From a virus (taxonomy: Duplodnaviria > Caudoviricetes), in the IMG/VR virus record IMGVR_UViG_3300020125_000336, positions 1 to 58,688 of that record: DNA of 58,688 nt. The stretch is one strand, 5' to 3'. Both the position numbers and the translations under genes were made by a program. Below are positions 254-42,421 of this stretch, piece by piece. Within the stretch, counting starts at the first letter, position 1, and the number at the start of each line of letters is the position of its first letter. Below the pieces are notes generated by a model. The model was not told the DNA's origin and did not search any database. It saw only the letters and a list, made by a program, of their open reading frames with translations.

Positions 254-697
254 TTAAGTTGGATATTCTCCAAAAGCAACGCTTTTACAACGTGCTCTTA
301 ATTTTTCATAGCTCCTCGAAGTTCCGGTAGTTTTGGCGTGGTCAGAGGGCGTCATCACTTGCAAATTACTGCGCCGGTTGTCGTCCTTAATTCCGTTTAT
401 GTGGTGAACATGCTCACTGCTTTCCAGCTTCCGGCCTAAAACCTTTTCCATCACGTGCCGGTGCTCTCGCACACCCTTGCCGTTCACCCGAATAATCCGG
501 TAACCATAGAAGTCTAGATAACCGCGCCACGGCCTGCCTTTATTCCGACGCCTTGGGATGCCGTACTTAACCAGCCAAGCGCAAACAGTGCCGACGCTCG
601 CATCGCAATAGGCGGCGATTTGAGCCGGTGTCCAGCGCCTACGCAGGTACAGCCTGCGAATCACGGCTTCGCCTGGGGACTTTGTTGGATAACTCAT
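254..697 (-). CDS. HNH endonuclease with N-terminal HTH
   Basis: EHRHVME...VHHINGIKDDNRRSNL HNH motif; N-terminal TPAQIAAYCDASVGTV HTH-like segment. Confidence 0.9.
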   Translation of the reverse strand: MSYPTKSPGEAVIRRLYLRRRWTPAQIAAYCDASVGTVCAWLVKYGIPRRRNKGRPWRGYLDFYGYRIIRVNGKGVREHRHVMEKVLGRKLESSEHVHHINGIKDDNRRSNLQVMTPSDHAKTTGTSRSYEKLRARCKSVAFGEYPT

Positions 698-12342: not shown

Positions 12343-12975
12343 TCACATTATCTTATCCAGCACCTTCTGCACCGTCTTGGCTATCGGCAACACCGGCTTG
12401 GGATAGCTGGTGAAATAATCAGGCGGCAAGTCGTCCAGCCTCGGATCACGCAGCAAACGCTTCAGGCCAGAGGCCACACAGAGCAGGCTGATCGGATGCA
12501 GCGCCCCCTGCGGCACCCACCATACATGCTTCTTGGGGTCCCACCAGCTGGCTCGAACCTCCCGGCCCTTCAGCCACCCACGAAAACAAAACACCGGAAT
12601 CTCCCCCGTCACCAGCACGTAGTAATGAGCCAGATTATCCGCCACCCGGGAACCATGCTGGCCATAAATGCACAGGTGCCCCGTGCTGTACTTGGTCCAG
12701 CGCACCTGCACGTTCGTCCCCAGGTCCGGACTGTGAAAACTCCCCGTCGCCCCGACCGGCTCCTTCAACTTGAAATAACGCTGGGCGGCTATCTCGGAGC
12801 CTTTGGATTGAATGTCCTGCTCCCGCCGCGCTACCTCCTGCTCCTCGGGGGTCCCGGCGAACGGGAACTTGTCCTTCAGGCCCCGGCGGATCGAGTCCTC
12901 CCGGCGCTCAATGCCCTGCTTTATAGCCAGCTCAATATCAGCCGTTACCAGCGTCCAGATTTCCGTCGAGTTCAT
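12343..12975 (-). CDS. phage protein with possible restriction-endonuclease-like fold
   Basis: GSEIAAQRY...PDLGTNVQVRWT...YVLVTG...RGW pattern resembles a variant PD-(D/E)XK core. Confidence 0.55.
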   Translation of the reverse strand: MNSTEIWTLVTADIELAIKQGIERREDSIRRGLKDKFPFAGTPEEQEVARREQDIQSKGSEIAAQRYFKLKEPVGATGSFHSPDLGTNVQVRWTKYSTGHLCIYGQHGSRVADNLAHYYVLVTGEIPVFCFRGWLKGREVRASWWDPKKHVWWVPQGALHPISLLCVASGLKRLLRDPRLDDLPPDYFTSYPKPVLPIAKTVQKVLDKIM

Positions 12976-13129
12976 CAGCTTCCTCCAGCAGTTTCACGTT
13001 TTTGATGTCACCGCTCATATTGGCGGCGTAACGCAGGGCGTCAGCCTGGATGTGGCGAACCGCGCGAATCGCCTGATCCACCCGGCCCACCACATCCAGA
13101 CTCAATACCCATTCTTCAGCCAGTCTCAT
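12938..13129 (-). CDS. hypothetical protein directly downstream of the periodic array
   Basis: ATG 13129 (MRLAEEWVLSLD...) begins where the 5-nt periodicity stops. Confidence 0.6.
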   Translation of the reverse strand: MRLAEEWVLSLDVVGRVDQAIRAVRHIQADALRYAANMSGDIKNVKLLEEADELDGNLDAGNG

Positions 13130-13133
13130 AACC

Positions 13134-13891
13134 AACACTTTACACGGCAACCCGGGCCACAGCCAACACAAAACCTGGCTTTACCGGCACGTTGCACAAC
13201 AGGGCCTCACTTCACCAGCACCAAACGCCACTTTACACGACTCTGCCGCTGCAAGACGGCCCTTCGCCTCACAATGCCCTTACGCCACGCCGCGAGCCGT
13301 CGCCAATACCCTGCCGCCCGTTGCCTCGCCTGCGCCTGACGGTCCCCCACATTGCCATGCCCATACTACGCCTCGCCTCGCCACACTTTGCCTTTACTCC
13401 ACGACACTCAACCATGCCGTGGCACCACAAAACCTTGCTTGCCAATACCTATGCAAAACCTTACTCAACTGTGCCAACGCTCCACCCCGCGCTGCCTGTG
13501 CTGCGCCGACTAGCCCATTGCCACTGCGCCACATGACTATACAAAGCCAGAGCGACCCATAACACGACTTCGCCCTGACGTTGCTTCACGATCCTGCGCC
13601 CTCACTGCACTTTCCATTACCATAACCCCACCTAACATAACTGTGCCATCGCATTGCCTCTGCCCCGCCACACATGCCCTCACCTCGCCCTGGCACTGCC
13701 AAACATGACCTTGCCATAGCAGCACGACACTTCACTCAGCCCGTGCTAAGCAAGACAGCACCGGCACAGTGCGCTACTACGCTATGCTTTGCCAGGACGA
13801 TACACTACAATGCTTTGCCCTTGCCTCACTCACCTATCCATTCCCATGCCGCAGCATGGCCTTCCTAAACTTTCCTTTACGTAACTATGCC
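13134..13891 (-). ncRNA. 5-nt-periodic repeat array (N-G-B-N-N)n in 28 GGY-initiated units; candidate guide-RNA array
   Basis: Hand parse of 758 nt gives 146 elements; G at position 2 in 145 and never A at position 3. Each unit starts GGC or GGT and ends in a 6-nt element, e.g. GGC AA AGC AT TGT AG TGT AT CGT CCT. Confidence 0.85.
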
Positions 13892-14577
13892 TTTGCCACC
13901 GTGGGCATTTCACTCCACGTGAACCGGCCATAGCCGCCTGAACGCCATTGGCCGGACCCCTTGTAATTGCCCATGTCCAGGCACTGCTTCACTAATTCAA
14001 GCGTTAATTCCCGCCACGCGGCGTAATCCTTTTTGCTCTGCGACTCGAATAGAACCACCTCGAACTCGCAGTACGAGCCTTCCTCCACGAACTCGCTCCG
14101 CGCCAGCGCCACGCGATCCCCGCGCAGCGTGGTCGCTCGCAATGGACGCTGCAAGGTGCCGTGCGGCTTCTCGATAATCTTGCCATTTTTGTCGAACAGA
14201 TAGACGCGCCGGGGATTCACATAGAGAGCCCCATCGCACGCCTTCTTGTAATTCCAAGGGTTCAACTTCTGCACCTCCCCCAGTTCGATCATCTGGCTGA
14301 CGCACTCCTTGAAAAAGCCGCGCCAGGTGTAATCCCACACGTGCAGCCCGGTTTTGTCCCGCTGAAAGACCGTGCTGCCCTTGGTGATTTGCTCGTCCAC
14401 CGGGACGGCGGCAATCTCCTCCTGCATCTTGATGGCCTTTTCGTCGGGGGTGATGTCGCCTTTGTAATCGGCGATTTTTGCGCTGATGAACTCCTCCTGC
14501 AATTCGGGATTGCCAGAAGCCGTCGCGAGAAACGGAGTCACAAACTCCGCCCGAACTCGCATTATGCTCTTTTTCAT
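13885..14577 (-). CDS. solo RAMP-superfamily (Cas7/Csm3-like) RNA-binding protein
   Basis: N-terminal strand MRVRAEFVTPFLA, helix DYTWRGFFKEC, thumb-like RPLRA...LARSEFVEEGSYCEFEVVL and C-terminal Gly-rich loop GSGQWRSGGYGRF; start moved to ATG 14577 (230 aa). Confidence 0.8.
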   Translation of the reverse strand: MKKSIMRVRAEFVTPFLATASGNPELQEEFISAKIADYKGDITPDEKAIKMQEEIAAVPVDEQITKGSTVFQRDKTGLHVWDYTWRGFFKECVSQMIELGEVQKLNPWNYKKACDGALYVNPRRVYLFDKNGKIIEKPHGTLQRPLRATTLRGDRVALARSEFVEEGSYCEFEVVLFESQSKKDYAAWRELTLELVKQCLDMGNYKGSGQWRSGGYGRFTWSEMPTVAKA

Positions 14578-14584
14578 AACTGAT

Positions 14585-14612
14585 ACTTTACACAATTATG
14601 AAAAGGAGGCAA
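14585..14612 (-). promoter_or_regulatory. promoter for the RAMP gene and array (leaderless)
   Basis: TTGCCT-16-TAAAGT with TG upstream of the -10 box, 7 nt before ATG 14577. Confidence 0.6.
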
Positions 14613-14624
14613 GCATTATTTTTA

Positions 14625-14764
14625 AGTTTTGGAGGCCCAGCTGTGGGACGGGCTTTACCGCCAGCGGCTGAACCGCAGTTAAATGCCTCCAAAACTCACC
14701 CGCAGCCGGTTCCCCGTCCACATGCCTTTCGGGCTGACTCAACGAGGATTACGGACTGCGGGTG
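14625..14764 (-). ncRNA. candidate structured RNA with two adjacent branched stem domains
   Basis: 12-bp inverted repeat 14625-14636/14685-14696 and 9-bp inverted repeat 14697-14705/14756-14764, each enclosing inner stems; G-U pairs favour the minus strand. Confidence 0.45.
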
Positions 14765-14782
14765 CCCAGGACCAAACCACCC

Positions 14783-14820
14783 AACAAAACCCTCATGCCA
14801 GCGATGACACACCGTGAGGG
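14783..14820 (-). terminator. possible intrinsic terminator
   Basis: Minus-strand hairpin CCCTCA..GTGTCA/TGGCAT..TGAGGG followed by TTTTGTT. Confidence 0.45.
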
Positions 14821-14902
14821 CGGCGGTGACGAAATAAGGCCCGTGGAAACAGTGAACCCAAAACCCCGTGCCATGTCGCGCTCGACTGGCTTACGCTAAA
14901 TG

Positions 14903-15202
14903 TTACGGAGTGGGGGTCGGCGGAGCGTCCGGAACCAGATCATCCACCACCTGGGCCTGGACCAATAAATCGGCTACCGCCTGTTGCAGTTCCGGGGTGA
15001 CGGTGCCGCCAGCGGCGATCTGCGCTTGCAGGTCTTTGATCATCTGGAGCAGGTTCCCGCTTTCGGTGCCAATCTTCACGAGTTGGGCGATAACGGTGCG
15101 GAGTTGGGTTGTGATTTCAGCTTGTGTTGCCATAATTTTATGCAGGTGTTCATCAACTATTTTGAAGTAACCTAAAACCAGTTCTTCAAACTTGACTTTC
15201 AT
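14903..15202 (-). CDS. coiled-coil hypothetical protein
   Basis: Heptad-like helix with a Pro-rich tail. Confidence 0.7.
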   Translation of the reverse strand: MKVKFEELVLGYFKIVDEHLHKIMATQAEITTQLRTVIAQLVKIGTESGNLLQMIKDLQAQIAAGGTVTPELQQAVADLLVQAQVVDDLVPDAPPTPTP

Positions 15203-16022: not shown

Positions 16023-19000
16023 TTAGAACTTTTCCGGAGTCATCCTTTCTGGCTCCATTTTCTCTGGTGCCATCCTCTCAGGCTCAATTCGTTCTTTATC
16101 TTCTTTGGCGTAAACATCGCTGGAGATACGCGCTCCGGTGGACCCAGCCATTGTCGCACCCAGCGCCTTCAGTCCCTTGAGCCATTTGTTGGCATCCTCG
16201 GGCGACATTCCTTGATTGATCCAAAGCTCTTTAATCCCCTCTTCAAGCGGGATCGGGGCGAATTGTTCCATGAGATATTCAGACCAATCGTAAGGCTTCT
16301 CTCCGCGCAACCGCTGCGAACGTGGCACCGGCTCGTTGCTCCATGGCATCGGGCGATTGGCAAAGTCCTGGGCTGTTAAAACATCACTCACCACTCCGCC
16401 GAACGGGCTCAGTTTCTGTCGAGCGTAACGGCCCAACGATTCGCTCGCGGCATCCGAACGTTGGGTCAGTTTTTCATACTTTGTGCGATCCGTCCTGAGC
16501 ACGTGAAGCAACTGCGCGAATGCCCTCACGATGCCGATAATGGGGCTGACGATCTTCGCCTCGGCACCGAATGCTTTGAACGCCATAAAATCTCCCCGGC
16601 GAGCATTCCAATCCGGGTCCAGAATTGGGGCGTTGATCCGCTGCTTGCTGCCCTGCCAGCTGAGAATGGCTTGATTGGCGATCAGCAGTCCAATGTAAGT
16701 CCCCACCACCGCCGCCTTCTCTTTGACTTGGTGCATCACGAACTGCTTTTCAACCGGCGTAATTTCATTGGGCCTGGTTTGCCATTTGATGCCCAGGTCC
16801 ATGGCTTTAACCGTATCACCCAGCAGCCATCCCCAGCGGGACAACTCCAGGCGCGGAGCAAATAGACTGACGTTGGCAAGCCCGGTGAAGATGCCCATGT
16901 TGGCTCTTGAAAAGCCGGTGGCCTTGTTCACCGCATCCGCCACCATCCTGGCCATTTGAACATTAGGCTCAATCCTCACGCCGTCTTTAGTTTTGACTTC
17001 GATCTGCGTCAGGGCGGGGTCCATGTTGTCCCAAATCTGATTAAACCTGGCCTGTCGGAATTCCTTCAGCGCATCGAACCCTCGTTGCCCCATGTCCGTA
17101 AGTTGTTTCCATCCTTTGGATACCCCGGTCAAGGGCTTGATCAACTCCAGCTGTTGCAGCTGGTAATCGTCAAAGTAATGGAACGGGTCATTGGCCAGTC
17201 CGGCGCGCCGAGCCAAATGATAATTGTGATCGTTACGCAGCAACTGCATCGCCGTGATGTGGGATTTCTCATTCATCGAGAACTTCCACTGATGCCAAAA
17301 GCTGGGCCAGTAACCATGCGCATCGCCATTAACATCTTTGAAATACCACGTGTGCAGGTTGAACATGTTCAGCCCAGCGTGCGTGATCATCCCCACTGCG
17401 CCGTGGCCGGTAATCTTCGCCGCAAACATGAAGCGCGGGATCTTCTTGAAGAACAGCTTCCACGTTGGCAGCGCCTGCTCCTCAATCCAGCGCTTTGCCG
17501 CCGCTCGCATCCGGCGCAGCTCTGAATTCTTGCGCCACATTTCCATCGTGCTCTGGCGCATCGAGTCGGACTCGTTCAACAACTCCGTGATCTTCCTGGC
17601 GCTGACACCTTTTTCATCAGCAATGACCTGAATAATAGTGTCCAGTTCCATGTCGCCTTGATCCATTAATTCACGGGCTCGCTTGCGAACCGATCTCGGC
17701 GTCAGTTCGGTCATTTCCGCGATCTTCTTTTTGCGCTTGGCTTCTTCCTTCTCAAATTCCTCGCGCTTAACCTTGATGTTCCCTGGCTTTCCGGTTCCTG
17801 TTTTAACCGTCCCGGGCTTCTCTGTGGTCCCGTACATCTCTTCTTCCAGGCGCTTCTGCTCAGCCGCCTCGTCCAGCTTGGTGGCCTCGCCCAATTGGTA
17901 ATCAACCGCATCGTTGGCCTCCTGGGCGTTCTCCTGAGCCTGCTGAACTGACTTGGCAATCTTTTCTGCCTTGTCGGTCTGCTTTGGCGTAAATTCCTTC
18001 CACTTGCCCGTTGTGGGATCGTAGGTGATTTCTTTGAAGTACCGGGAAATATCCGTGAACGTTCCAGTGTCCAAGTCAATTGCGCCCTGCTGCGCTTCAC
18101 CGGCTGCGTGCCACACCGTTTGCATCGGTTTGCTGGCTTCATCCCACTGAACCGCTTCATCGTAAGTCGGCTTCCAATCTGGCGCATCTTTGCCACGGGA
18201 CAGTTCAATCTTACGAGCCTGGGAAAACTTCTGCTCCGCCTTGGCCCGGACAACAGCGATCATATCTGCGCTGATGTCTTTGCCTCCACTGTCGGCAAAT
18301 TTCTGAACTGCCTTCTCGGCGGCTTGCGGATCAGTCGCCAGCAAATCACGGCCACGTTGCACGGCTTTGCGCCACGTCGTTCCTTCACCCGGAGGAACTG
18401 GTTCAGTGAATCCCATCCTGGCTCTCCACTCACGCAACCTCGCGGCGATGCCGTAAAGGTCTTTGGCTGGTTCTTGCGTCAATGACTTCAACGTGGTGGG
18501 CGGAACGGGCGGGACATCGGGCGGCTTGCCTTTGCCACCACCCGGCAGCAGCACGGACCCCTCCTGAAAACGCAGCGCTCGCTTGGCTTTCATCTCCGCC
18601 AGACGCTGGATAGCTGCGTCACGGGTCATGCCTTCGGGTATGATGAAATGGAAGTTGTCGGCTTTGGCCAGCTTCCTGATTGCCTCACGCCAGTTGCCGC
18701 CAGCGGCTTTGACCACTCGCTCGATTTCAGGCACGAACTTTTCGGCCCTATTTGACTTACCGGCTGCTTGTGCAGTAGGCTCACTTATGGCTGGCGATCC
18801 TGAGGGTGGTTCAGCACCCTCAGTTATAGCCGAACCCTCTGCTGTCGCCGCTGGAGGCACAGGTCTTGTCTGTGAAGTTTCCCCTGGCTCGCCCGGGGGA
18901 AGCTTTTCCTGTCGCGGCAAATTCTTCAGCGCTTCGCTGGCTGCATCCATGTCAGAGATCGCCTTCTTCAATTGCCCCGGGCTGCGCGATCTTATCTGCT

Positions 19001-22000
19001 CAAACATGTTGCCCACTTCCGCCATTACATCTTTCGATGCTTCCGGCGAAACCTGAGCTTCTCGCTGAGCGCTATCGCCACCGCCTGTTTCTGCGGGTAG
19101 CCGCTGTGCCTCAGTTCCGATATGTTCTGGCTGACCACCTTTTTGCTGCTGCCCTTCTTTAATGGCATCTTGTTGTCCTTTCAGTTCACCGTGTTCTCTT
19201 AAAAATTTGATCCTTTGAGCAGCATCTTCCAGCGCCTGCTTGTTCTGCCTTTCAGCCCTCAACTTCTCGTTGAGCTTGTTCATCTTGGCCACGATGTTCG
19301 GAACCTCATTGGGCTTGGCGGCTTTGGCCTGCGCCGTGAGCCGATCCATCTGTGCCTGGAGATCTTTTATCTTCCCCTCATCGCCTTGAGGAAAGATGGC
19401 ACCAGCCTCGCGGCGATTGCGACCATAGGAAAATCGGGATGTGCTGCCACCTATTCCGCCACCGGGTTTTTTTGGTTCATCCTCGGGAGGAGGCTTGTTG
19501 ATGTTGCGCTCGATCCAATCCTCGATCTTCTTTCTCTGCCAATTAGTCATCTCGGTCTTTTCCAGCTCACCGCTCTGGCGAAGAATGGTGGCGATATAGC
19601 CGGGGGCCATTTTGCCCTTCATGTCATCAAACCAGCGCGTGGGGTCCTTGGGGTCATGCTTTAGAGCGAACCTTAATTGGTTATCGGCGTCCTGCCGGAT
19701 GAATTCTTTCAAATCGACGCCCCTGCCCTCGAACGTTGATCTGCCACGCACAGTTTTCAGGTAAGCTGTAATGTGCTCGTCAGGAGTTTCTGCCTCCTTT
19801 TCCTCTTCTGCGTACAAATCTTTGGGGATTTCCGGTTTGCTCTTTCTGAGGCGTTCAACCTCTGCCTTTTCTTCGGCTGAAAGTTCTTTCCGCTCAGGTC
19901 CAATTTGCTGGTCTATCCAGTCGTAGATGGAATCACGATGCTTTTTGAACATCACGTTTTTCCTGACCCACCCCGTCATGCGCATGGACGCCGCCAGCTT
20001 TTCTCTATTGGCCTTAGTTTGTTCCGGCGTGGCCATTTGGTTAGTGGTCATCCGATCCAATACTGAAACTGGATCTTTACCAAGATCGCCTGACAAACTT
20101 TTCACGTTGCCTTGCGCAAGTTCCATCAACGTTGGTATGGGGCCTTCTTGAAATCTCAACCGAACTCGGCTCTTGAAACTCCCTGGTCCTTCATACTGAT
20201 GGAAGTTGAGAATCTGCTCAGGCAGCCTGCCTTTTTGAGAAGCATATTCAGACTCTCCTTGCTGGAGCTTGGTCTGCTGCTGAAACTCATCGGAGTACTG
20301 GTCAAGGACATCGTTTATGGAATCCAGCAACTGTTTCCGCTGTGGTGTAAGCGTTTCATCACTGGCCAGACGGGCGGCTTCATCTCGAATCTTATTGGCC
20401 TCGAAGCGAGCGCTGGACACGTCGCCTTCTTTCAGGAACTGCTCCACTACGGCGAACGAGGTTTGCAGGCGTGGTGGCAATCTTTCAATGCCTTCGCGCC
20501 GTGGAAGTGGCGGGGCATCGGAGGGCCGGTCACGGATCGCAGTTATGTCGTGGCCAAGGTGGTAGCTCTTTTCCGTGCCGCCGCCCTTGTAAGTAATTTC
20601 AAACGGATGCTTTCCAACTTCCGGTGTGTGCGTGGCCTTGGCACCGGCAATAACTTTGCCTTTCTCGTCCACCATTAGCACGTGTGGATCAGCCAAGTCC
20701 CGAATGTCACGAGTGGCGTCAGGTTTAATTTCCAGATATGTGCCGTCTGGCTGCTTGTCAGCAAGAATTATCTTGCCGCCAGATCTCCTGGCTTTCGTGA
20801 TCGCTTCTACAGCCTTTCCAGAAATAAACACCACTGCATGCGGATCTCCCGAAATGTCATTTTTTGGCATTCCAACACCCGGTGGCCTGGAGAATCCACT
20901 TAGTCGCGTGGTTCGGCCACGTTCATCCATCATGTACTGGATTCCCTCAGAGGTGACGAACCCAGTTTGTCCAGCCACTGGCGGCTTGGTGGGCTTAATC
21001 GCCTCCCGTTCAGCCTCCACGGCCTTCTTTTTCTCCCGACGCTTATCCGCCGCCTCCTTAGCCTCGGTCACCTGCTGTTGCTTAATGGTGATGTCCCGAA
21101 TCTCCGCGAGATTCTTGTTCAGAGTTTTCTTATAATCTCTGATGAAACCAGCGACGGTGAGCTGAGGTGCGCCTTCCGCCCTGGCAAAGTTGGCGTCAAT
21201 TACCCGATCTTCCAGCTTCTTGCGATCAGCCAGACGAGTTTGGATAGCCTGATTCTCACGCAGTAGTTTTTGCTTTCTGGACTCCAGCCGTGGATCTGAA
21301 CGACCAATGGTTTCAAGCCTGGCTGTTTCAGCAGCTTCTGTGGCGGCAGCAGCTTTGGCATCCGCCACTCTCTTTGCTTCTGCTTGAGTTTCAGTCAGAA
21401 GTTCTTCAGGAATCGGAGTTGCCGCGCCCGTGGCCGGTTTTACTGGTGGCTTGGGCTCTTGTGGCACTGTGACTCCGCCTTCAGCTCGCGGTGGCTCTCG
21501 AAGTTCAATGGGAGGCACACTGCCTGGAGGGCTCCAGGGGCCTAAGGCTGGCTGCCCCATTGGGCCTGGCCTTGGAATAGTTGGACCAATCGGTTGGTCA
21601 TAACCAATTGGAATATTCGGCCCCAGCATTGGACCGGACGCTGGAACTGATGGCGGCATCCTTAATTGCTCACCCCACGAACCCTGGTAAGGACCAGCGC
21701 CAATTTGATCAGGTCGGGGCAAAAGCCGTCTCTCCTGTTCCGGTTGTGTTAGCGGTGTTGGCAGGGCTGGTGGCGCAAAAGGAAACTGCTGTGGCTGTCC
21801 AGTTCCGGTGAGACCGATGCGCGGCGGCGGAGCCTTTGGTTCAAGTCCGTAAATGTCCGGTCTTTGAGTCAGGTCCGTGCTGCCCTTGAGCAACGGGGAT
21901 ATTTCCGACATCGCTCCACCCAGCGTGAACCCGGTTGCTGTCACGCCATCGGCAATCAGTTTGGCGATCAGTTTATTGTCACGCTTTTCTGGTGGCTTGC

Positions 22001-22532
22001 CTGATTCCTCACCCAACTTCGTGGCGATCTCTGGAACTTCCTTCCCCATTTTGTAGGTGAAGTAGGCAATCAACGCCTTTTGGATTGGCGCAGAAACTCC
22101 GCCGATGCCAAGGGTTGAAAGTCCAAATGGCGACATCAACGTGTCCAGCGTCCCCACCGCGCTCTCCGCTACGCCTCCGCCAATATCCTCTACCAGCTGC
22201 TGCCCTGGTGTCGGCGGCTTGCTCAGTTGCAGGTTTGGCTGATATGCCGGGGCAACTCCCGAAATGGGCTGGAGGGAACGGGAAAGGTTAAGGCTGATTG
22301 GTCCGGTCTGCTCGCCTATTGGTTTGGGTGGGATCAGCGGCGTCGGCGGAACTGGCTGGACCTGCTCCTCCAATGCGCCTGCGTAAGGGCCACGGAAATA
22401 AGCGCCTTTAAACCCCTCGATTATGGATGGATCGATTAACGTCCTGGGAGGTGCCACGTCCTCTGGGCCACCGAAGTCAGGAAGCTTTGGCTTTTCTGCT
22501 ACGGCTGTGTCCCCGAAATCGGGTAGTGGCAT
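16023..22532 (-). CDS. very large putative internal virion/DNA-ejection protein (2169 aa)
   Basis: Size, Pro/Glu/Lys-rich low-complexity linkers, coiled coils and position at the end of the short-tail operon. Confidence 0.65.
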
Positions 22533-25172: not shown

Positions 25173-25880
25173 TTAAAAAGGATAGGTTTTTCCGGCTCCG
25201 CTGTTATACAGGTCCGTGAGTTGGGATGAGTTGAGCACACTTCCCAACCATACTCCAGTTTCATCTATCAACGTATCTGGAAAGCCAATTCTTACGATCC
25301 ACGTCTGGCTTGGAATGGTTGTGCCTGCATCGGAAGCCGAAGTAGGGCTCACGGTAAATGCGCCGTTATTCACCGATACCTGAGTTTTTTGGGAAATAGG
25401 GTCGTACTGGCCAACAATGAAGTACCAAGTGTTTGTGGCAAAGGCGAATGGGAGTGTCGCAACCACGTCCGGACCAACGGCGGGAGAGAACTTAAAAGCT
25501 GCGGAAATGTTGGTGATGTCAAACCTGAAATCAAGATCCCAGGCAGCCATTTCCAAAGCGCTATGCGCATTGCCCGGAGGTTGTTGGGGGACAAGGAATT
25601 TAATCCATAAGACAAACGTAAGGCCAGTGCCAGGAATGTAATGCAGCGAGTTTCCGCTTGGAGTTGTGTAGAATAGCGTGTCCAAAATACCGCCCGTGAA
25701 AAGCGCATTCCCAATGAGTCCTGGCGCATCACCTGTTTCAGTGCCGCCTACCAACAAGCCATTGCTGCCGATGGAGTCGGCCCGGGTGCCAGTTGCTTCA
25801 TCCAACTTCCAATATGCCGATGGAGTCGGAATGGATGAATTCACCGTTATCGAGAAATTCTTTTGGCACGCAATGCTCAT
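25173..25880 (-). CDS. LamG/ConA-like lectin-domain protein
   Basis: AYWKLDEATGTRADS...TWYFIVG...IDETGVW...LYNSG LamG-like pattern. Confidence 0.8.
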   Translation of the reverse strand: MSIACQKNFSITVNSSIPTPSAYWKLDEATGTRADSIGSNGLLVGGTETGDAPGLIGNALFTGGILDTLFYTTPSGNSLHYIPGTGLTFVLWIKFLVPQQPPGNAHSALEMAAWDLDFRFDITNISAAFKFSPAVGPDVVATLPFAFATNTWYFIVGQYDPISQKTQVSVNNGAFTVSPTSASDAGTTIPSQTWIVRIGFPDTLIDETGVWLGSVLNSSQLTDLYNSGAGKTYPF

Positions 25881-26842
25881 GTGGACTCCGTTTGCAGCGT
25901 GATGGTGAATGAAAACGTTCCGGCAACGGTTGGGGTTCCTGAAATAATGCCAGTAGTTTCATCCAGTGACAGTCCAGTCGGCAGTGCTCCGGATGTCACC
26001 TGCCAGCTCAGCGTCTGCTTTGCGCACGATGTTGCAACTAAGGTTTGAGAGTAAGCAACATTAGCGGTGGCATTTGGCAATGTGCCCGGGGTTATGTTGA
26101 CGACGCAAATATCGTACTTCTTCACCATGTAATCCCCGTTAGGCGCAGTCACCTTGACGTAGAACGTGAACTGGCCTTCCACTGTTGTGGTGCCACTCAG
26201 AAACACCAGTGCCCCACCGGCCCCGGTTGTGAGCGTGAGCCCAGTTGGCACGGAGCCGGAAACAATTTCCCAGAAGTTGTCCTGCTCGATGCCATCTCCC
26301 AAAAACCCACCTTGCGCCGTTATGGATTGCGAGTACGCAGATCCAAGGCAGGTCTCAGGCGGCAAATTGGAAAGGCAGATGCGATGCTGGGCTGCCAGGC
26401 GGCAGGCCAAAGCATGAGCCTGAGAATCCGCTAACCCTTGGGAACGACCGATGAACTCCCCGCCAGGGACATAATACGTGAACAGGTTGCCATCGGGGCA
26501 CTTCACGGCGCACGACTGCCCACGGTTAAAAAAGAGGATAGTGGTTGTGCCGGGATTGTCGGGATCTGGTTTGTCTGGTCCAGGGCAGTTCAAGCTGATC
26601 TGAGCGCAGCGTGCAAAAAGTTCAATCGCAACCGATGCCCTCTCCTCCGGGCTGGCACCGATGCGAACAGCAGCGGTGACCAGCTGATCGCAGCACAGCA
26701 TTTTCAATGTGCTGGGATCGCAACTAAAACCCTCGGGGCAGATCAGCACAGGCCCGAACTCGATCAGATCCAGGGAGTATGCTGACATCCCGAAATCATC
26801 GGCATCCACACAATCCAGGGGTAAGCAGGCTTTGCAACTCAT
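25877..26842 (-). CDS. Cys-rich virion protein with two C-terminal Ig-like (He_PIG) domains
   Basis: SGSVPTGLTL and SGALPTGLSLDETTGIISGTPT motifs; start moved to ATG 26842. Confidence 0.8.
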   Translation of the reverse strand: MSCKACLPLDCVDADDFGMSAYSLDLIEFGPVLICPEGFSCDPSTLKMLCCDQLVTAAVRIGASPEERASVAIELFARCAQISLNCPGPDKPDPDNPGTTTILFFNRGQSCAVKCPDGNLFTYYVPGGEFIGRSQGLADSQAHALACRLAAQHRICLSNLPPETCLGSAYSQSITAQGGFLGDGIEQDNFWEIVSGSVPTGLTLTTGAGGALVFLSGTTTVEGQFTFYVKVTAPNGDYMVKKYDICVVNITPGTLPNATANVAYSQTLVATSCAKQTLSWQVTSGALPTGLSLDETTGIISGTPTVAGTFSFTITLQTEST

Positions 26843-26844
26843 GG

Positions 26845-27666
26845 CTAGTAATGGTAAACGTTGGTGCCGTAGTTGTGAAAGGCGTTCACCAGAGTTTGGT
26901 CCAGCAGGGCACTGGATGTCAGCGAGTTGGTCCATATCCAAAACTCCTTAATCCTCAAAGAGTTTCCGCTGGCCCTGAATTCGTTTCGGCCTAAAAGCTG
27001 AATCGGTCCAGCTGGATTTCCAAAATATAAACCGTTGGCCACAGCGCCCTGGTATCCAGACGATACAATTGAATTTGTCCAACACTCCAAAGACTGATTT
27101 GGCGTGCCCCCTGAATTGGTCACACTTTGACTGACAATGAGATCTATGAAGAAATTGGTCAGCCCGTCCATTTTGTTGGTGATGAGGTTTTGGGCGGTGC
27201 ATCCACCGGATATGGCAAACGGCCACGTCAACGTTCCTCCATCACGCCACCCAAGTTCCGGGTTATTTAAACAAACACTTTCATTCCGTGAGGAAAGAAG
27301 TTGAGGATGCGTCCCACTGAATCCAACCACGTCGATGATGAAGCCAAAGGAGCAATTGCTGGTCAGCGGGAAGCTGGCATTGCTGAGCCAGTGGCTGGAA
27401 TCGAACCACACTCCATCCGATGAATTAGTCGGACGGTTGGCAGTCGCCCCGTTGGTGTAAACCACGGACTGAACCTGATCGGTCCAGCTCACCACAGCGG
27501 TATTCGTAGCCAGGTCTGTGGCCACCCACCTGTATGCCACCTGAGCCAGATTGGTTGTGATTCCAGCTGAAACGATTGCGTTAGGAGCCAGGAACGGCAG
27601 CCCCGTTGTCGCGTTAAACGGCTGCGCGGCGGCACTCAGGCACAGGAATGGAAGCAGCCACTTCAT
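26845..27666 (-). CDS. signal-peptide, TN-rich beta-sandwich/lectin-like protein
   Basis: MKWLLPFLCLSAAAQ signal peptide; many TN/NxS motifs. Confidence 0.7.
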   Translation of the reverse strand: MKWLLPFLCLSAAAQPFNATTGLPFLAPNAIVSAGITTNLAQVAYRWVATDLATNTAVVSWTDQVQSVVYTNGATANRPTNSSDGVWFDSSHWLSNASFPLTSNCSFGFIIDVVGFSGTHPQLLSSRNESVCLNNPELGWRDGGTLTWPFAISGGCTAQNLITNKMDGLTNFFIDLIVSQSVTNSGGTPNQSLECWTNSIVSSGYQGAVANGLYFGNPAGPIQLLGRNEFRASGNSLRIKEFWIWTNSLTSSALLDQTLVNAFHNYGTNVYHY

Positions 27667-28901
27667 GGTATCTTAACGTTGCTTATCTTGAGGTTTCTGG
27701 CGGTGATCTTGGTGGGCAACGGCGGGTCCTGAGCCGTCACAAGTGGGTGAGGGTAAACCAGTGTTACCACTTGGGCAGGCACGAGATTGCTGAAATAAAC
27801 ACCGTTTCCCATATAGGCATCCGTGTTGTATCCTGGCTGCGGGATTCCGTCGTACGTGGTTCCGTTGCACACGTTCCCCCATATCCAATAGTTGGTTATG
27901 GGGTCGTAAATGGTTCCCGTGAACCAACTGCTTGTCGGGTCGATATCCTCCTCATGAAAGTAGATTCCAAGACTGCTGGCCGTTCCCGTGACGATGTTCG
28001 AGAACAGCAATCCGGACCCGGCGCGAGCGGTGATGAATTGCACCCCGCTGCTCAATCCGGTGCAGGTAAATGTGTTGCTGTAGATATTAAGCACGTAAGT
28101 GCCACGAGGGGTGGCTGGATTGGATGGAACACCCTGGTTGCCATGACACTCAAAGAATTGTGGGGCGCTGCTGTTGACCGTGATGTTTACATTGAAAGAC
28201 GAGTGCCTGACCACGTATCCGCCGCCATCCTGGGCGGAGAACATGATATTGGGTCCACTCCCGCTGCTGTCGAATGTGTTCCAAATCCCCACGTTGGATT
28301 CATAGACCATTGAATTAGTGCTCGCAAAGTCGGGCGGGAACCACGCCGTATTTGTCCTGACCCACCATTCCTCCACCGGGGTTGAGCTTTCGCTGGTCGA
28401 AGAGGTGGGGGAAATTGTCCTGGCAAACCTGTTGCAGTCAACAACAGTGCAGTGATCCACTACGCCAGCGCACCCGTTATAAAATGCGAATCCGCCGCCT
28501 GGGGACGACCCGTTGAAGTTCTGAATCCAGCAATGGTCTATGCGAGCCCTGCTGTTGGTGGCGCACCAAATGTGCATACAGTCGCTATTGTCGGACGGCC
28601 CAAGGAATTTTATTCCGCTTACACGCACTATTCCTGACCCGCTTAACTGGATCTGAACAGCTTGTCCGTTGCAGGTCACAATGGTGCTGTTGGTGCCTGC
28701 GCCTATCACAGAGAGGTGTTTTGTGATGCTTAAGGTAGAGGCCCACGTGACAGAACCCGCTGGGACATTAACCGTGTCCCCGTCGTTCATACCGTTTACG
28801 GCATTCTGAACCGTGCTCAGGTTGGCGTTGGGACAATTGGTCGTCGCCGCGTCAACGCTCAAGCACGCCAATCCAATCAGAATCGAGGTGATGGTTTTCA
28901 T
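27663..28901 (-). CDS. signal-peptide parallel beta-helix (pectin-lyase-like) protein
   Basis: VQNAVNGMNDGDTVNVPAG cap, RIDHC/VDHC repeats and C-terminal YPHPL. Confidence 0.8.
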   Translation of the reverse strand: MKTITSILIGLACLSVDAATTNCPNANLSTVQNAVNGMNDGDTVNVPAGSVTWASTLSITKHLSVIGAGTNSTIVTCNGQAVQIQLSGSGIVRVSGIKFLGPSDNSDCMHIWCATNSRARIDHCWIQNFNGSSPGGGFAFYNGCAGVVDHCTVVDCNRFARTISPTSSTSESSTPVEEWWVRTNTAWFPPDFASTNSMVYESNVGIWNTFDSSGSGPNIMFSAQDGGGYVVRHSSFNVNITVNSSAPQFFECHGNQGVPSNPATPRGTYVLNIYSNTFTCTGLSSGVQFITARAGSGLLFSNIVTGTASSLGIYFHEEDIDPTSSWFTGTIYDPITNYWIWGNVCNGTTYDGIPQPGYNTDAYMGNGVYFSNLVPAQVVTLVYPHPLVTAQDPPLPTKITARNLKISNVKIP

Positions 28902-30115
28902 CAGAAGAAAGTCGGACGAATGACCAGATTGGTGGTGCCCCAGACCGGTGAATACTTCACCCAGATAATGCCAACCGTGGCGTTGGTGAGCACGGCGCTA
29001 CGCGTTCCATCGGAACTGGTGAAAGACGCAAAATAGACCGTTACGTTGGTACTGGCGGCATTGCTGATGGACAGGCTTACGCCACTGGAGTACGCGCCCA
29101 ACTTCCCGGCCACTCCAGTCAGCGAGCATGGCGTGAATGTGGTATAATAATTATCGGCAAAACCCAGGCTCAAAACATTGGTCGGACCAGCCCACGAGTT
29201 GGTGGACACAGCGTAGCCTCTGCCAAAGAACCCGTTCATGTTGGTATCGAACCCAGCAACAATGGTGGTTCCATCAGCATCCAGAATGTCGATGACGCCA
29301 CTCTTGTTGGTATCCACAAAGGTGGTTGGCCCAACCCAGGTCTCGTTGGTGCCATATCCTCCAAAACTCAAGACGTATCCGTTGGAGGTGAGTTGGAAGT
29401 TTTGCACCGTCAAGTTGGTGACGTAGAGATTGGTGATGTAGGAAAAATTACTGATGTTCGTTGTGGCGTTGACGGTCGTGGCAAAAAGATTGGTAGTGTA
29501 CAGGTTTGTCGTGAACGAAAAATTACTGATGTTGGTTACCGCATTGACCGTGGTGGCAAAGATATTTGTTGCGTAAAGGTTAGTCGTGAAATCGTAGTTG
29601 TTGATGTTCGTGACAGCGTTCACCGTGGTGGCGAAGAGATTGGTGGTGTAGATATTGGTGGAGTACAGGTTGGTGATGTAAGCCGTGCTGTCGAAGATGT
29701 TCGTGACGAACAAATTGGAAGTAATTTCCGTTGTCACAAACAAATTGGTCGTGAAATCGTAGTTGTTTATGTTGGTTACCGCGTTGATCGTCGTGGCGAA
29801 AATATTGGTTGAGAAATCGTAGTTGTTGATATTCGTGACGGCGTTGATCGTGGTGGAGTAGAGGTTGGTGATGTAAGCGACATTCACCACGATGTTGGTG
29901 CCTATTGCGTTCGTTACGGTAATGCCCATCTGGTTCGCAAACTCCGACTCGGTGATGTTGTAATTCGTGGACCCTCGCCACACCAAAATCAGGTCATTGG
30001 CGTTAAGGGTGGACGTGTGAGGAAACTGCGGGTAAGTGATGATCTTAAAGACGGTCTGCGCTCCGAGTGTCAGGAGCGCCACCACGATCAATAGTCCAAT
30101 GAGGCATTTTTTCAT
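28901..30115 (-). CDS. signal-peptide protein with Thr-Asn repeat stalk
   Basis: Hydrophobic N-terminus; repeated TN(L/I)(F/Y)xTTxNAVTNINN units. Confidence 0.8.
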   Translation of the reverse strand: MKKCLIGLLIVVALLTLGAQTVFKIITYPQFPHTSTLNANDLILVWRGSTNYNITESEFANQMGITVTNAIGTNIVVNVAYITNLYSTTINAVTNINNYDFSTNIFATTINAVTNINNYDFTTNLFVTTEITSNLFVTNIFDSTAYITNLYSTNIYTTNLFATTVNAVTNINNYDFTTNLYATNIFATTVNAVTNISNFSFTTNLYTTNLFATTVNATTNISNFSYITNLYVTNLTVQNFQLTSNGYVLSFGGYGTNETWVGPTTFVDTNKSGVIDILDADGTTIVAGFDTNMNGFFGRGYAVSTNSWAGPTNVLSLGFADNYYTTFTPCSLTGVAGKLGAYSSGVSLSISNAASTNVTVYFASFTSSDGTRSAVLTNATVGIIWVKYSPVWGTTNLVIRPTFF

Positions 30116-30117
30116 AA

Positions 30118-32208
30118 TCAGGTTCCGATAAGCGATCCGCCGCCGCCACTTTGCACACTGCCGCCACCGCCGCCGATCAGGCCAATCACCCTCTCTGTTT
30201 CAGTTGAAACCGGGCAGCAATAAGGAGGTGAAAATCTGGGCCGAGGCGCGGCGATTGCTTCAAAGCGTGCGCCCTTAAACTGACAGTGACCCACGATGAT
30301 GATTTTGATCTGAAAGTTGAACCCTTCCCGCAATGGGCGGTTGTTGGTCGGATCACAGAAGTTGGAACTTGGCTCCCCCAGGCCCATAACAGGCCGGAAT
30401 TGAGGCTTGGAATCGTCCGAGTCTGACCCGGCGCATTCAGTCCACCTATACCACAGCGTCCAGCATGGGTATTCGTCCGGCTTCCAATAAACATCAAACC
30501 CCACGGTTCCGATCAACTGGTCCACGTAGATTTCACCGTTGGTGAGGCGCTTGTAAATTCTGGTCCGTTGATCCGCGTCTTTGAATATCGTGGGGGACCA
30601 CATTTCAATCCGAATGGGGACGCTGCCGTCATCCTGAATCAGCTCGCTTTCAGTGGGCATGATCTCCCAAAGCTCAATCTGGCTATTGGTGGTGTTGACG
30701 GTGAAGGCAAAGCATCTTTGCACCCCGGCAAATTCCCCCACGAGCAATTGCAGCACGTTGAGCCCGGTCCAAAGCCCGTCATAAACTGAAGGGGCCTTCC
30801 CGCGCAGCGTGGAAATCGGATCGAAGTTCAGCGCCACAATTCCACGATGATAAACACCTGATCCAACACGCTTGGGGCTGACGGTGAGCAAATACCGATT
30901 GTCAAAAACTACCGAGCTGCTGAACTGAGAGAGTCCACGGTCATCCCGAGCCAAAATCGGGTCAACTTCAAGGCTCTGCGGCACGTTGCCCCAAGTGTCA
31001 AAATCACGCCGTCCCAGAATCAGTGAGCGAAGGCCATCCACGGCGCGAAACAGAATGTCGCCGTTGGCGTTCTGAGTTGACCACTGCGAAAGCGCTCCGT
31101 TGCTGATTAATGATTCAGTGAGTATGGGGTTGGTCAACGATTGCCACGTCAGCCGGTCCACCGGGGAGTTGCACGAGAACACCTTGTCCGGGGTGAATAT
31201 CTGCACCGGCCCTTGCCCAAGCGAAGCATCAAGGGTTGCCGCTTCTCGAATGGCTCTTATGTCTCCAGCGCTCCCGGGGACAGTGAACAGACCACCACCG
31301 GCCAGGAAGTTGTTTTCCGTCACATGCAGGACGGCATCGCGGAACTCGTTGGCCTGAGTGCCGCTACTCCCGCCAACCAAATCACTAACGATCCATTGTT
31401 TCCCGTTAGGCAGGCTGACCCAATTCCGGCCCATCACATAAGCGCCCATCCGGCCAGGTGGCAGAGAATTCTGGGCGTGAAACCAAGAAACGGTTACTCC
31501 AGAACTGATGACTCCTCCCGTTGGTGTGGAGCTTTGGTTGACCAGATCCACGGTCCCGGTTGTTCCACCTGTTGGGGTTGGTGCTCCCTTGACCAAAAAT
31601 TGTCCGTTTTGGATCGTGACCAAATCTCCGTCGTTAAGATTGGTGATGTCAGCAAGAGGGACTGCGGTTGCAGTGCCACCGGGCGGCGGAATGACAAAAT
31701 CAGCAGTAGTGGTGGTGGTCAGATAAGCTGTCGGCCCCAGGCGATTGGAGAAAGTGTCCGAAGTGTAAATTGGACGCGACACCCCGTCGTTCCAGATCGT
31801 CCACTCCTCGGATTGCCAGAGCCACGCCTGATCTGGTCCGGCAGGATTGGGGCCACCGAGCACCGCACTGGCAGTCATCTCGGTGACAACGGCGGTATCG
31901 TCCAGCCCTGGGGTAAACTGAAACAACCTTCCCGATATGGCTGCTCTTAGGCTTTCCGCACCGGAATCAGGATTGTAAAAACAGCCGCCTTGAAACTTGA
32001 AAGTGGCAAAATCCATGACCCCGCTCAGCTTCATTTTGCGGTACACTGGGCGATGGGAGACGAAGGTGCCTCGCACCGTGCCGTTGACCAAATTGTTCAG
32101 CTGGTTCTTTGGTAACAGCAGCGGGTCAATCCCAAGGTTCATCCCCGCTTCAAAATTGCCGAGGAAATCGTAAAGCGTGTCTGGCTTATAATCTTGTGGA
32201 GCAGGCAT
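30118..32208 (-). CDS. putative tail nozzle/tail tubular B (DNA-stabilisation) protein
   Basis: About 700 aa, beta-rich; N-terminal F.AGMN..IDP.LLP.NQ...LVN motif typical of podovirus nozzle proteins. Confidence 0.65.
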   Translation of the reverse strand: MPAPQDYKPDTLYDFLGNFEAGMNLGIDPLLLPKNQLNNLVNGTVRGTFVSHRPVYRKMKLSGVMDFATFKFQGGCFYNPDSGAESLRAAISGRLFQFTPGLDDTAVVTEMTASAVLGGPNPAGPDQAWLWQSEEWTIWNDGVSRPIYTSDTFSNRLGPTAYLTTTTTADFVIPPPGGTATAVPLADITNLNDGDLVTIQNGQFLVKGAPTPTGGTTGTVDLVNQSSTPTGGVISSGVTVSWFHAQNSLPPGRMGAYVMGRNWVSLPNGKQWIVSDLVGGSSGTQANEFRDAVLHVTENNFLAGGGLFTVPGSAGDIRAIREAATLDASLGQGPVQIFTPDKVFSCNSPVDRLTWQSLTNPILTESLISNGALSQWSTQNANGDILFRAVDGLRSLILGRRDFDTWGNVPQSLEVDPILARDDRGLSQFSSSVVFDNRYLLTVSPKRVGSGVYHRGIVALNFDPISTLRGKAPSVYDGLWTGLNVLQLLVGEFAGVQRCFAFTVNTTNSQIELWEIMPTESELIQDDGSVPIRIEMWSPTIFKDADQRTRIYKRLTNGEIYVDQLIGTVGFDVYWKPDEYPCWTLWYRWTECAGSDSDDSKPQFRPVMGLGEPSSNFCDPTNNRPLREGFNFQIKIIIVGHCQFKGARFEAIAAPRPRFSPPYCCPVSTETERVIGLIGGGGGSVQSGGGGSLIGT

Positions 32209-32783
32209 TATCCAATGATCGCCCAGTCAACGGTTGAAACATCGGTGGCGCTGCTGGAATTGATCGTGAACCCAACGCCCACTACCCGGCTGGCGGAAGG
32301 TGCACTCAGGTTGCCCAACGCCCCCAACGGCGTGTTGCGGCTCAAAAAGATCTTGCTCGATGCCGTCACCAGTGGAGTGGCAACTGTCACGGTTCCGGCC
32401 ACCAAAATCGCCACCCCAGTCGTCACGGCAATTGCAGCAGGCCCGGCTATTCCGCCAGGGGATACTCCTGCGCCGGACACAATGTTGGTGGCTGGCGCGA
32501 TGTCCCCGGCGTAATTCAAGGCGACAACGGTGGCGGTGGTTGGCCCGGTAATCGCAGAAACCCGCACGTGGGCCGGGCCACTAATCACCAGCACCTGGCC
32601 TACGACCATGAAAGCGGTGGAGATGACGGTGATGGTCCCGGTGGCGTAGGTAAAATCTGCGATGGTGAAGGTATAGGCGTTTTGACCATTGGTTCCGTCC
32701 AATCCACCCAGGCCTTCAATGCCGGGGATGTTGACGGAGAGCGGTACACTGCAACAAGGCTGACAAGGGGCAGTAGCTGGCAT
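32208..32783 (-). CDS. putative virion structural protein
   Basis: Cys-rich N-terminus and Thr/Val/Gly beta-rich body; first gene of the tail module. Confidence 0.65.
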   Translation of the reverse strand: MPATAPCQPCCSVPLSVNIPGIEGLGGLDGTNGQNAYTFTIADFTYATGTITVISTAFMVVGQVLVISGPAHVRVSAITGPTTATVVALNYAGDIAPATNIVSGAGVSPGGIAGPAAIAVTTGVAILVAGTVTVATPLVTASSKIFLSRNTPLGALGNLSAPSASRVVGVGFTINSSSATDVSTVDWAIIG

Positions 32784-32786
32784 AAT

Positions 32787-33296
32787 TTATTCTTTCAGTA
32801 AGTATTTTACGTGATTCCATGTGTCACCCTGGATGGCGCGTTGGCCAACGGATGGCTGGACACCAAAACGGATTGCTATACTTCTCATGCTTGCCCCGTT
32901 TTGGAAGTGCAGAGCACGCATGAGCTTTACATCGAAGTCTGTCAATTTGGCCTGACTGTTTTTCGCACCAACGAAAGACGCTCGCCTGCCTTTCTCTTTC
33001 ATGTCGTCGTGATTGTCTTTCAATGTGCCAAGAAAAAGGTGACGTGGATTAACGCACGCCGCGTTGTCGCAAGAATGCAAAACGTTTAGCCTGCCTGGAT
33101 CTTGTCCATTTTGCAAAAACCACATCACACGGGCAGCGTAGGTAGTTGTTTCGCACACCCAAAAAACAGCTCGAATGCCGCTTCCAAGCCCACCTGTCCA
33201 AGACCAGCATTCATCCGGACAACGCTTGTTGACCTTTGACCAGAATCTTTCAACATCGCGTGTTGAGATTTTCGGCAGTGGCTTTGGATGGCTCAT
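32787..33296 (-). CDS. HNH endonuclease with C-terminal HTH
   Basis: RFWSKV...ECWSWTG...VLHSCDNAACVNPRHLFLGTLKDN. Confidence 0.92.
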   Translation of the reverse strand: MSHPKPLPKISTRDVERFWSKVNKRCPDECWSWTGGLGSGIRAVFWVCETTTYAARVMWFLQNGQDPGRLNVLHSCDNAACVNPRHLFLGTLKDNHDDMKEKGRRASFVGAKNSQAKLTDFDVKLMRALHFQNGASMRSIAIRFGVQPSVGQRAIQGDTWNHVKYLLKE

Positions 33297-41522: not shown

Positions 41523-41834
41523 TTAATCTTTCTTCTCAAATTGCTTCACTAATGGCATCTCGTCCAAAATATGGTGAAGGCCGGGGCTAGGGAAATCATC
41601 TCCCTCCTCTTCGGCTTGGCCGATAGTGGACAGGGAATTTTCGTAGTGCCGTGCGCCAGCCAGGGACTCTGTGGTTTGGGCATTCTCCAAAATCATGGAG
41701 CGCACGTGCAGAAGGACATCATCGAAGCGCGGATCGCCCGTCACCGCCGCCCACCATTTGCACAGGTCTTTTTTGGACTGAAAGAGGGCTTTGATTTGAT
41801 TCATGGCTTCAGCTCGGTCTCGAATTGTTCGCAA
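41523..41834 (-). CDS. hypothetical protein preceding the scaffold
   Basis: About 100-aa helical ORF in the usual position before a scaffold gene. Confidence 0.6.
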   Translation of the reverse strand: MRTIRDRAEAMNQIKALFQSKKDLCKWWAAVTGDPRFDDVLLHVRSMILENAQTTESLAGARHYENSLSTIGQAEEEGDDFPSPGLHHILDEMPLVKQFEKKD

Positions 41835-42421
41835 ATTCTTGGCAGCACGGTATAGACTTTTAGATGGGGCAGGGTATGCAGCGCAACTGAAATATCCAAA
41901 GGCGCGTAGACTTTACGCTGAGTTTTGAGCAGCACCGGCAGCGCTTTCTTGGCGATGATCGTGGAGTGACCACACACCGGGTACTTTAGATCCCACACCT
42001 CACCGGCCACATGCGTCTTGGGCTTGTCGCTCGCACAGCAGGACCCGATGAACAACATATCGAAGTCTCGGGGCACACTGCGCAATGCAGCTTCGGTGCG
42101 TTCACGCCAGTTGGCGGGGAATTTGCAGTCCCACTCCAGCTGCCAGAAATGTTCCTCTGGGCACATGTTCATCGCTGCCCACAACATGTAAAAACTGATC
42201 CACGTGGCCACGGGCTTCACGCCGATGTTCCAGCCGCCGCCCGGGTTGTCGCGCTCGTAAGTGTAAATCGTGCGCAGCCCTGAGATGGTGCCGTGGATAC
42301 CGTTAAACGGCTCAGCTTCGATGCCCACCTTGTTGAAGTGCGAGGAAATAAACGCCCATTTTTCGGGCATCTCCTGAAGCACGACCACGAAGGGCCTGAT
42401 ATTGTATGAACCGATAATCAC
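41801..42421 (-). CDS. glycosyltransferase family 25-like
   Basis: EPFNGIHG, SFYMLW, QLEWDC (LEDD-like), PRDFDMLFIG and APLD motifs. Confidence 0.75.
   Translation of the reverse strand: MIIGSYNIRPFVVVLQEMPEKWAFISSHFNKVGIEAEPFNGIHGTISGLRTIYTYERDNPGGGWNIGVKPVATWISFYMLWAAMNMCPEEHFWQLEWDCKFPANWRERTEAALRSVPRDFDMLFIGSCCASDKPKTHVAGEVWDLKYPVCGHSTIIAKKALPVLLKTQRKVYAPLDISVALHTLPHLKVYTVLPRICEQFETELKP

Follow-up and report, generated by a model that had tools for sequence, protein, structure and literature searches.

A probable VIPR locus with a lone Cas7-like gene and a 144-unit five-base array in a complete Caudoviricetes genome

We find that a locus on the minus strand of a complete phage genome very probably constitutes a VIPR system, made up of a gene for a lone Cas7-like RAMP protein, vipr, and an adjoining guide array of G-Y-N-N-N units (Table 1). 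VIPR (Viral Interference Programmable Repeat) is a CRISPR-related form of RNA-guided DNA silencing that was first described in 2026 (bioRxiv 10.64898/2026.04.26.720920). The window, by which we mean the whole stretch of DNA that was analyzed, is a 58,688-base IMG/VR record (IMGVR_UViG_3300020125_000336) that carries direct terminal repeats, with an exact repeat of 127 nt, and is rated 100% complete by CheckV. A preliminary description of this DNA had proposed that a solitary RAMP protein reads the five-base-periodic RNA of an adjacent array, and had pointed to a resemblance to newly reported VIPR systems. Those systems are real and are the subject of three preprints (bioRxiv 10.64898/2026.04.26.720920, 10.64898/2026.04.26.720927 and 10.64898/2026.10.15.759431). 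The core of the proposal is supported by the predicted fold of the protein, by its profile homology to the Vipr of the Escherichia phage SUSP1, by the linkage of gene and array across related loci and by the slow evolution of the constant bases in the array.

The setting of the locus is a full virus record in which no CRISPR-Cas system was detected. None of the 64 ORFs of the phage matched a cas family in PADLOC, where the sole match was an HNH protein (1 of 64 ORFs), and Tandem Repeats Finder identified no CRISPR repeat-spacer array in the genome. Both results agree with what had been noted earlier. Neither the repeat-spacer array nor the multi-subunit cas operon of class 1 CRISPR-Cas was therefore found in the phage genome.

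Table 1. Coordinates of the VIPR locus and of other features mentioned in the text (positions in the 58,688-base window).
Feature	Coordinates	Strand	Description
vipr (putative)	13885-14577	-	230 aa from ATG, stop codon included; 236 aa from upstream TTG
vrRNA-type array (putative)	13134..13897	-	~750 nt, 144 units; starts within last vipr codons
Upstream intergenic gap	14578-14902	-	325 nt, between ORF 14903-15202 and vipr start; possible promoter region
63-aa ORF and 210-aa ORF	12343-13129	-	directly after array
microRNA-model match	13043-13102		E 0.95; outside array
2169-aa ORF	16023-22532	-	just upstream of VIPR region
Weaker period-5 signal	26526-26800		within coding ORF 25877-26941
75-nt and 60-nt tandem repeats	29442-29869		inside ORF 28901-30115
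K1-lyase C-terminal domain protein	32208-33296	-	adjoins HNH endonuclease
Second HNH	254-697	-	near left genome end
Sugar-modification cluster	41801-44647	-	three proteins (see text)

All of the RAMP motifs that had been listed for the 230-aa ORF are present in it (VTPF, WRGFFK, EFVEEG and GSGQWRSGGYGRF). Searched alone, the protein returned nothing useful from Pfam, PADLOC or PDB sequences and a single match from PHROGs, with an E-value of 0.43. An AlphaFold2 model of the 230-aa protein, built on 66 homologues, reached a pLDDT of 89.2 and a pTM of 0.83. With this model, Foldseek returned 161 PDB matches at E ≤ 0.001, the best of which were type VII Cas7 and Csm3. In VIA-align, an independent search against structural representatives, the best match was Csm3 with a Z-score of 12.7 (chain 9g9a_D, 165 residues, rmsd 4.1); next came Cmr4, gRAMP, type IV Csf2 and Cas6. 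The top matches from both programs all belong to the Cas7 family. The model consists of an RRM core, a two-helix insertion (residues 24-56), a thumb beta-hairpin (residues ~140-164) and a glycine-rich loop, or G-loop (residues 207-217), which reads G207-S-G-Q210-W211-R212-S-G-G-Y-G217-R-F. We are confident that the protein is predicted to adopt a minimal Cas7/Csm3-type RAMP fold, in which a single RRM carries both a G-loop and a thumb.

Cas7-family proteins polymerise along guide RNA at a fixed step, which is 6 nt in class 1 CRISPR-Cas systems. The window protein shares the RAMP fold, the thumb and the glycine-rich loop with the members Csm3, Cmr4 and type VII Cas7, with Z-scores of up to 12.7. 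Class 1 systems differ from the window locus in possessing a repeat-spacer array along with Cas5, Cas6, Cas10 and Cas1/2, and in stepping along the guide by 6 rather than 5 nt. Their guide is contiguous, whereas the guide information in the window array is interleaved with constant bases.

The Vipr of SUSP1 offers a point of comparison at the level of single residues. In the cryo-EM preprint, W178 and R179 of this protein hold G2 and Y3, while H17 and D177 read G1 (bioRxiv 10.64898/2026.04.26.720927). An ORF of SUSP1 (L092:28474-29061, minus strand) has H17, R138, C173, D177, W178 and R179 at the numbering of that preprint and is flanked by GGYNN tracts, and we have therefore taken it to be the published Vipr. 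When a 66-member profile of the window protein family was aligned by hhalign with a 45-relative SUSP1-Vipr profile, the match extended over 185 columns, nearly the full length of the protein, with a probability of 92.4% and an E-value of 5.3e-7. SUSP1 Vipr aligned singly with the family profile matched at the G-loop only (36 columns, probability 54.8%). A tblastn search of 50,697 phage records with the window protein matched 7 records, with SUSP1 absent from among them; the matches were four human-gut ‘Bacteriophage sp.’ (31-34% identity), Hydrogenobaculum phage 1 twice and Aquificae Conch Spring virus (E 0.2). The homology to SUSP1 Vipr therefore rests on the comparison of profiles.

W178 and R179 of SUSP1 align with W211 and R212 of the window protein, within a G-loop that in both proteins follows the pattern G-x-G-[D/Q]-W-R...G-R-F. 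The G1-reading residues of SUSP1, H17 and D177, are replaced in the window protein by T19 and Q210, and the Q is found in at least 90% of the family. This exchange of T and Q for H and D would fit a repeat whose first G became free, a suggestion drawn from the sequences of two clades only.

As had been described, the last codons of vipr run directly into an array on the same strand, and the period-5 signal extends over the full interval given in Table 1. Lag-5 identity of the array is 0.408, compared to 0.282 ± 0.015 in 2000 shuffles (z 8.3), and the maximum among the other 751-nt segments of the genome (n = 1130) is 0.308. Each of the three sense frames contains 9-13 stops. Segmentation of the array by dynamic programming yielded 117 five-base units and 27 six-base units. 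In the five-base units, the first base is G in 116 of 117, the second is T in 53, C in 46, G in 18 and A in none, as expected from the fixed G-[C/T/G] reported earlier, and bases 3-5 vary. The six-base units are without exception G-Y-N-N-N-G (27/27) and are spaced by 26 nt (12 times), 31 nt (9 times), 21 nt (4 times) or 11 nt (once). The earlier description needs correction in that the period is not purely 5, with a six-base unit recurring mostly every 21-31 nt. These units break up the array, which thereby consists of about 28 blocks, 21-31 nt in length, that each start with a full G-G-Y.

Base composition of the array is strongly skewed, with 306 G and 128 C on the gene strand, and GGCA occurs 22 times as opposed to 4.4 times in shuffles. 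No recurring conserved tail was found in the array, nor was any Rfam family or ribozyme, the sole match being a microRNA model that lies outside it (Table 1). The predicted fold of the array RNA was no better than that of shuffles (z −0.67). The array is thus a tandem series of five-base repeats that combine constant, G-rich bases with hypervariable ones, in the variant YNNNG form and not as GGY/NN. A weaker period-5 signal elsewhere in the genome falls within a coding ORF that has an Ig-like He_PIG domain; we rejected this tract as a second array, as it is coding and not GY-NNN, and its periodicity is probably incidental.

A promoter belonging to vipr itself, as claimed in the preliminary description, was not recovered. 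A sigma-70 scan gave no minus-strand site upstream of vipr. The intergenic gap before the gene leaves room for one and is a possible promoter region for vipr and the array together. No terminator of vipr or the array was identified by the scan. Directly after the array and on the same strand lie a 63-aa ORF and a 210-aa ORF, with no intervening terminator, which may be co-transcribed with it. The larger of these matches phrog_18407, whose function is not known, and neither is kept beside vipr in other loci.

Relatives of the window protein are numerous. The family comprises 1268 representatives at 50% identity with E ≤ 0.001. Candidate stretches from IMG/VR were confirmed as relatives in 546 of 584 cases, and when another query was used, in 567 of 579. 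From prokaryotic genomes, 12 of 52 candidate stretches were confirmed. Among 91 related loci that were fetched and checked for periodicity, a five-base-periodic tract adjoins the gene in 86; the loci without such a tract are L018, L052, L087, L090 and L091. Among 99 tracts, the G-rich strand coincides with the gene strand in every case but 2. Pooled across tracts, there are 8510 units of five bases and 1513 of six, besides which units of three (38), four (231) and seven bases (36) occur. Family-wide, six-base units are most often separated by 4-5 five-base units, and the extra G is embedded in the consensus G-C-A-A-n-G-G-C-a.

By far the longest array seen (L088:3351-7025) occupies ~3.7 kb beside vipr in a Clostridia genome bin from sheep colon and contains 605 five-base and 103 six-base units. 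In 29 of the related loci a CI/LexA-type repressor (HTH_3 and Peptidase_S24 domains) is encoded just upstream of vipr, for example at L081:1-568. Given this adjoining repressor, the system in those 29 loci is located in the lysogeny-control region.

Comparison of arrays allowed the constant and variable bases to be set against one another. Mismatches were counted in 782 pairs of homologous blocks from different arrays; these pairs are not phylogenetically independent of one another, and the p-value of a chi-square test on them is not to be read at face value. The rates were 1.3% for the G, 3.1% for the Y and 3.7% for the extra G, and 7.7%, 8.2% and 10.8% for variable bases 1, 2 and 3. In these pairs the pace of change is 3-8 times slower at the constant bases than at the variable ones, and the low rate at the extra G shows that it too is conserved. 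Variable base 3, which occupies the slot of the lost G1, drifts faster than the first and second. This difference tends to favour a code with two read bases per unit, like the published GGY/NN code, where two bases are read and one is skipped (bioRxiv 10.64898/2026.04.26.720920). Blocks common to different arrays gave no clean guide boundaries and tend to straddle the extra G.

Close relatives of the window locus illustrate both persistence and turnover. A metagenome contig (L094) carries an identical gene and array. In a second relative (L095), the gene has 91.2% nucleotide identity to the window vipr (632/693), while the arrays are 51% identical over the comparable 361 nt and have in common a 27-nt piece (96%) and a 26-nt piece (88%), in reversed order. 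The 284 nt upstream of vipr in L095 are also just 53% identical to the window, so general mosaicism adds to the difference between the two arrays.

The original VIPR preprint recognizes seven types and 667 representatives (bioRxiv 10.64898/2026.04.26.720920). Its Methods section on ‘VIPR type classification’ includes YNNNG repeats, and the legend of its fig. S18 refers to ‘staggered’ arrays. Written as a tandem repeat, the G-Y-N-N-N of the window is YNNNG, and the locus further resembles VIPR systems of this kind in having a lone minimal viral RAMP, no cas genes or CRISPR array, and an adjoining five-base array. The window system is a YNNNG-type VIPR. Since YNNNG repeats and ‘staggered’ arrays are already present in the preprint, the locus is of a known kind and not a new system, and the earlier suggestion that its free first base made it a distinct variant is not borne out. 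The window array is probably ‘staggered’ in the published sense, a comparison that sets the extra G every 21-31 nt against the term as it appears in the figure legend.

The type II VIPR of SUSP1 consists of Vipr, vap1 and four vrRNAs, and has been studied by sRNA-seq, reporters and cryo-EM (bioRxiv 10.64898/2026.04.26.720920 and 10.64898/2026.04.26.720927). In addition to the protein homology and the shared G-loop, whose W and R hold G2 and Y3 in SUSP1, the window system would be expected to share the five-base step, with one protomer per repeat. SUSP1 vrRNAs are ~100 nt long, with 9-16 GGY/NN repeats and a conserved pseudoknot tail each, whereas the window has 144 GY/NNN units in one unbroken tract with no tail. 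VIPR loci ‘typically’ carry a vap gene (bioRxiv 10.64898/2026.04.26.720920), so that it is no strict requirement; none was found in the window. The ORFs near vipr gave no informative Pfam match and do not recur in the compared loci except in L095, the near-identical relative, and for this reason no vap gene can be named. With a single continuous tract, no recurring tail and GY in place of GGY as the constant bases, the locus departs from the type II pattern of SUSP1 and P. fulva. That the array lacks the features of type II vrRNAs, namely units of 9-16 repeats with a tail or pseudoknot, a ribozyme and a stable fold, counts against our assignment to VIPR, as do the narrow single-sequence match to SUSP1 Vipr and the failure to find a vap gene, a natural target (see below), a promoter or a terminator.

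Taking the SUSP1 and P. fulva work as a guide, we infer by homology that the array would be transcribed with or after vipr and probably cut to short vrRNAs. Each five-base unit would be bound by one Vipr protomer, with the constant G-Y flipped out and held by the thumb and the G-loop through W211 and R212. The variable bases would then be offered for gapped pairing with the dsDNA of a competing phage or satellite, the transcription of which would be blocked.

To look for such targets, guides were decoded under up to 14 rules, with two or three read bases and 0-3 skipped target bases, using reversed guides and triplet-shuffled guides as controls. The sequence covered was small, at most 0.70 Mb and none of it from phages of the same habitat, and comprised the phage's own genome, related loci, six whole phage genomes and 144 unique vipr genes; in it no natural target rose clearly above the reversed or shuffled guides under any of these rules. 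The 144 units of the window gave nothing above controls against the phage's own genome under 10 rules. A seed-and-extend search with deduplication enriched 0 rules in the related loci, and 0 rules were enriched in six whole phage genomes (302 kb). Exact 14-nt and 16-nt words served to compare 10,572 units, taken from 102 tracts, with 0.70 Mb of loci. An excess appeared for co-linear period-5 rules only, and we read it as leftover array homology.

Genes for Vipr itself were also searched as targets. With 91 vipr genes, a rule of three read bases and one skip gave 5 matches of at least 19/21, compared to 0, 0 and 1 in controls. This apparent excess faded with 144 unique vipr genes and 9,556 guide windows, where the same rule gave 6 matches; reversed guides gave 0 and the shuffles 4, 4, 1, 0 and 2, so that the difference is not significant. 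The published two-base, one-skip rule gave 9 matches on the 144 vipr targets, with 10-20 in shuffles, and a test of 5′ regions at a threshold of 16/18 or better was flat under two rules (21 against a mean of 17.8). One guide stood out as a lead only. Under the three-plus-one rule, units 138-144 of the L026 array read the first 28 nt of vipr, counted from the ATG, in 11 other loci (L020, L054, L056, L068 and 7 others) at 18-20/21, and just 13/21 of its own vipr. For L068, a second guide falls on the same vipr-start site in the same register. The L026 guide resembles the early-codon anti-vipr guides reported for relatives of SUSP1 (bioRxiv 10.64898/2026.10.15.759431), although it is not significant family-wide.

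It is conceivable, if unlikely, that this clade decodes its guides differently from the GGY/NN one-skip scheme. In that case the periodic full GGY sites would fix either the register or the termini of ~26-31-nt mini-guides, each of which could make up roughly one helical turn of the filament, and the third variable base would possibly be read. The L026 guide on the start codons of rival vipr genes might fit such a reading of three bases and one skip. A period-4 target code of this kind would lose the wobble-skipping logic that the VIPR authors stress (bioRxiv 10.64898/2026.04.26.720920), and a reading of three bases is at odds with the third being the quickest to drift.

The lack of a target under any rule tried, together with the lack of tails and of recognizable single-guide boundaries, could also mean that the locus is related to VIPR but has an array that serves as a decoy or sponge RNA for Vipr protein, its own or that of rival phages, or else an array that is eroded and non-functional. 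In the satellite preprint, Vipr is diverted to decoy sites by vrRNAs (bioRxiv 10.64898/2026.10.15.759431). We nevertheless regard this explanation as very unlikely, given that the constant bases are strongly conserved while the variable ones turn over, that the 144-unit array is intact and recurs without change in another metagenome (L094), and that long arrays lie beside the gene in nearly all of the loci compared. The target search, moreover, spanned very little of the relevant sequence space.

A functional VIPR guide array thus remains our preferred reading, and its putative target would be DNA. That the complex instead acts on RNA transcripts, in the manner of type III or type VII Cas7 and without silencing dsDNA, is an idea prompted by the nearest solved folds, which are RNA-targeting Cas7 proteins (Csm3 and type VII Cas7), and by the ability of VIPR to pair its guide with RNA (bioRxiv 10.64898/2026.04.26.720927). 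We consider it highly improbable, as the characterized systems require DNA and a triplex for the full filament and for silencing (bioRxiv 10.64898/2026.04.26.720927), homology to Vipr spans nearly the full protein length, and no nuclease partner was found near vipr. Least credible of all is that the tract works as DNA, whether by binding proteins, by serving in replication or packaging or as a G-rich structural element, which its strong strand asymmetry might suggest. The G-rich strand is almost always the sense strand, as expected for a co-transcribed RNA, and the RAMP fold of the protein is an RNA-binding one, with a G-loop like that of a protein for which binding of such RNA has been shown.

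VIPR, discovered only months ago, is a minimal RNA-guided DNA binder that has been proposed as the ancestor of CRISPR RAMPs. The locus leaves the published picture of VIPR unchanged and, as part of a complete phage genome, provides a clean example with a 144-unit array. Its clade is very large, is not covered by any Pfam, PHROG or PADLOC model and uses the less-studied GY-NNN repeat. The correspondence between residues and repeats (H/D with GGY, T/Q with GY), the extra G and the drift of the third base may help to decode variant repeats.

Several other features of the genome were noted in the course of this work (Table 1). Just upstream of the VIPR region, a 2169-aa ORF has 0 Pfam or PHROG matches, and most large ORFs of the phage are likewise unannotatable. 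An HNH endonuclease is encoded next to a protein whose K1-lyase C-terminal domain is that of a tailspike chaperone, and another HNH is found close to the left end of the genome. One ORF contains tandem repeats, 75 nt and 60 nt in length, that probably represent a repeated protein domain. Finally, a cluster on the minus strand encodes a PglD-like hexapeptide acetyltransferase, a fragment of a DegT/EryC1-type aminotransferase and a GH130-like protein, which suggests glycan modification of the virion or of the host surface.
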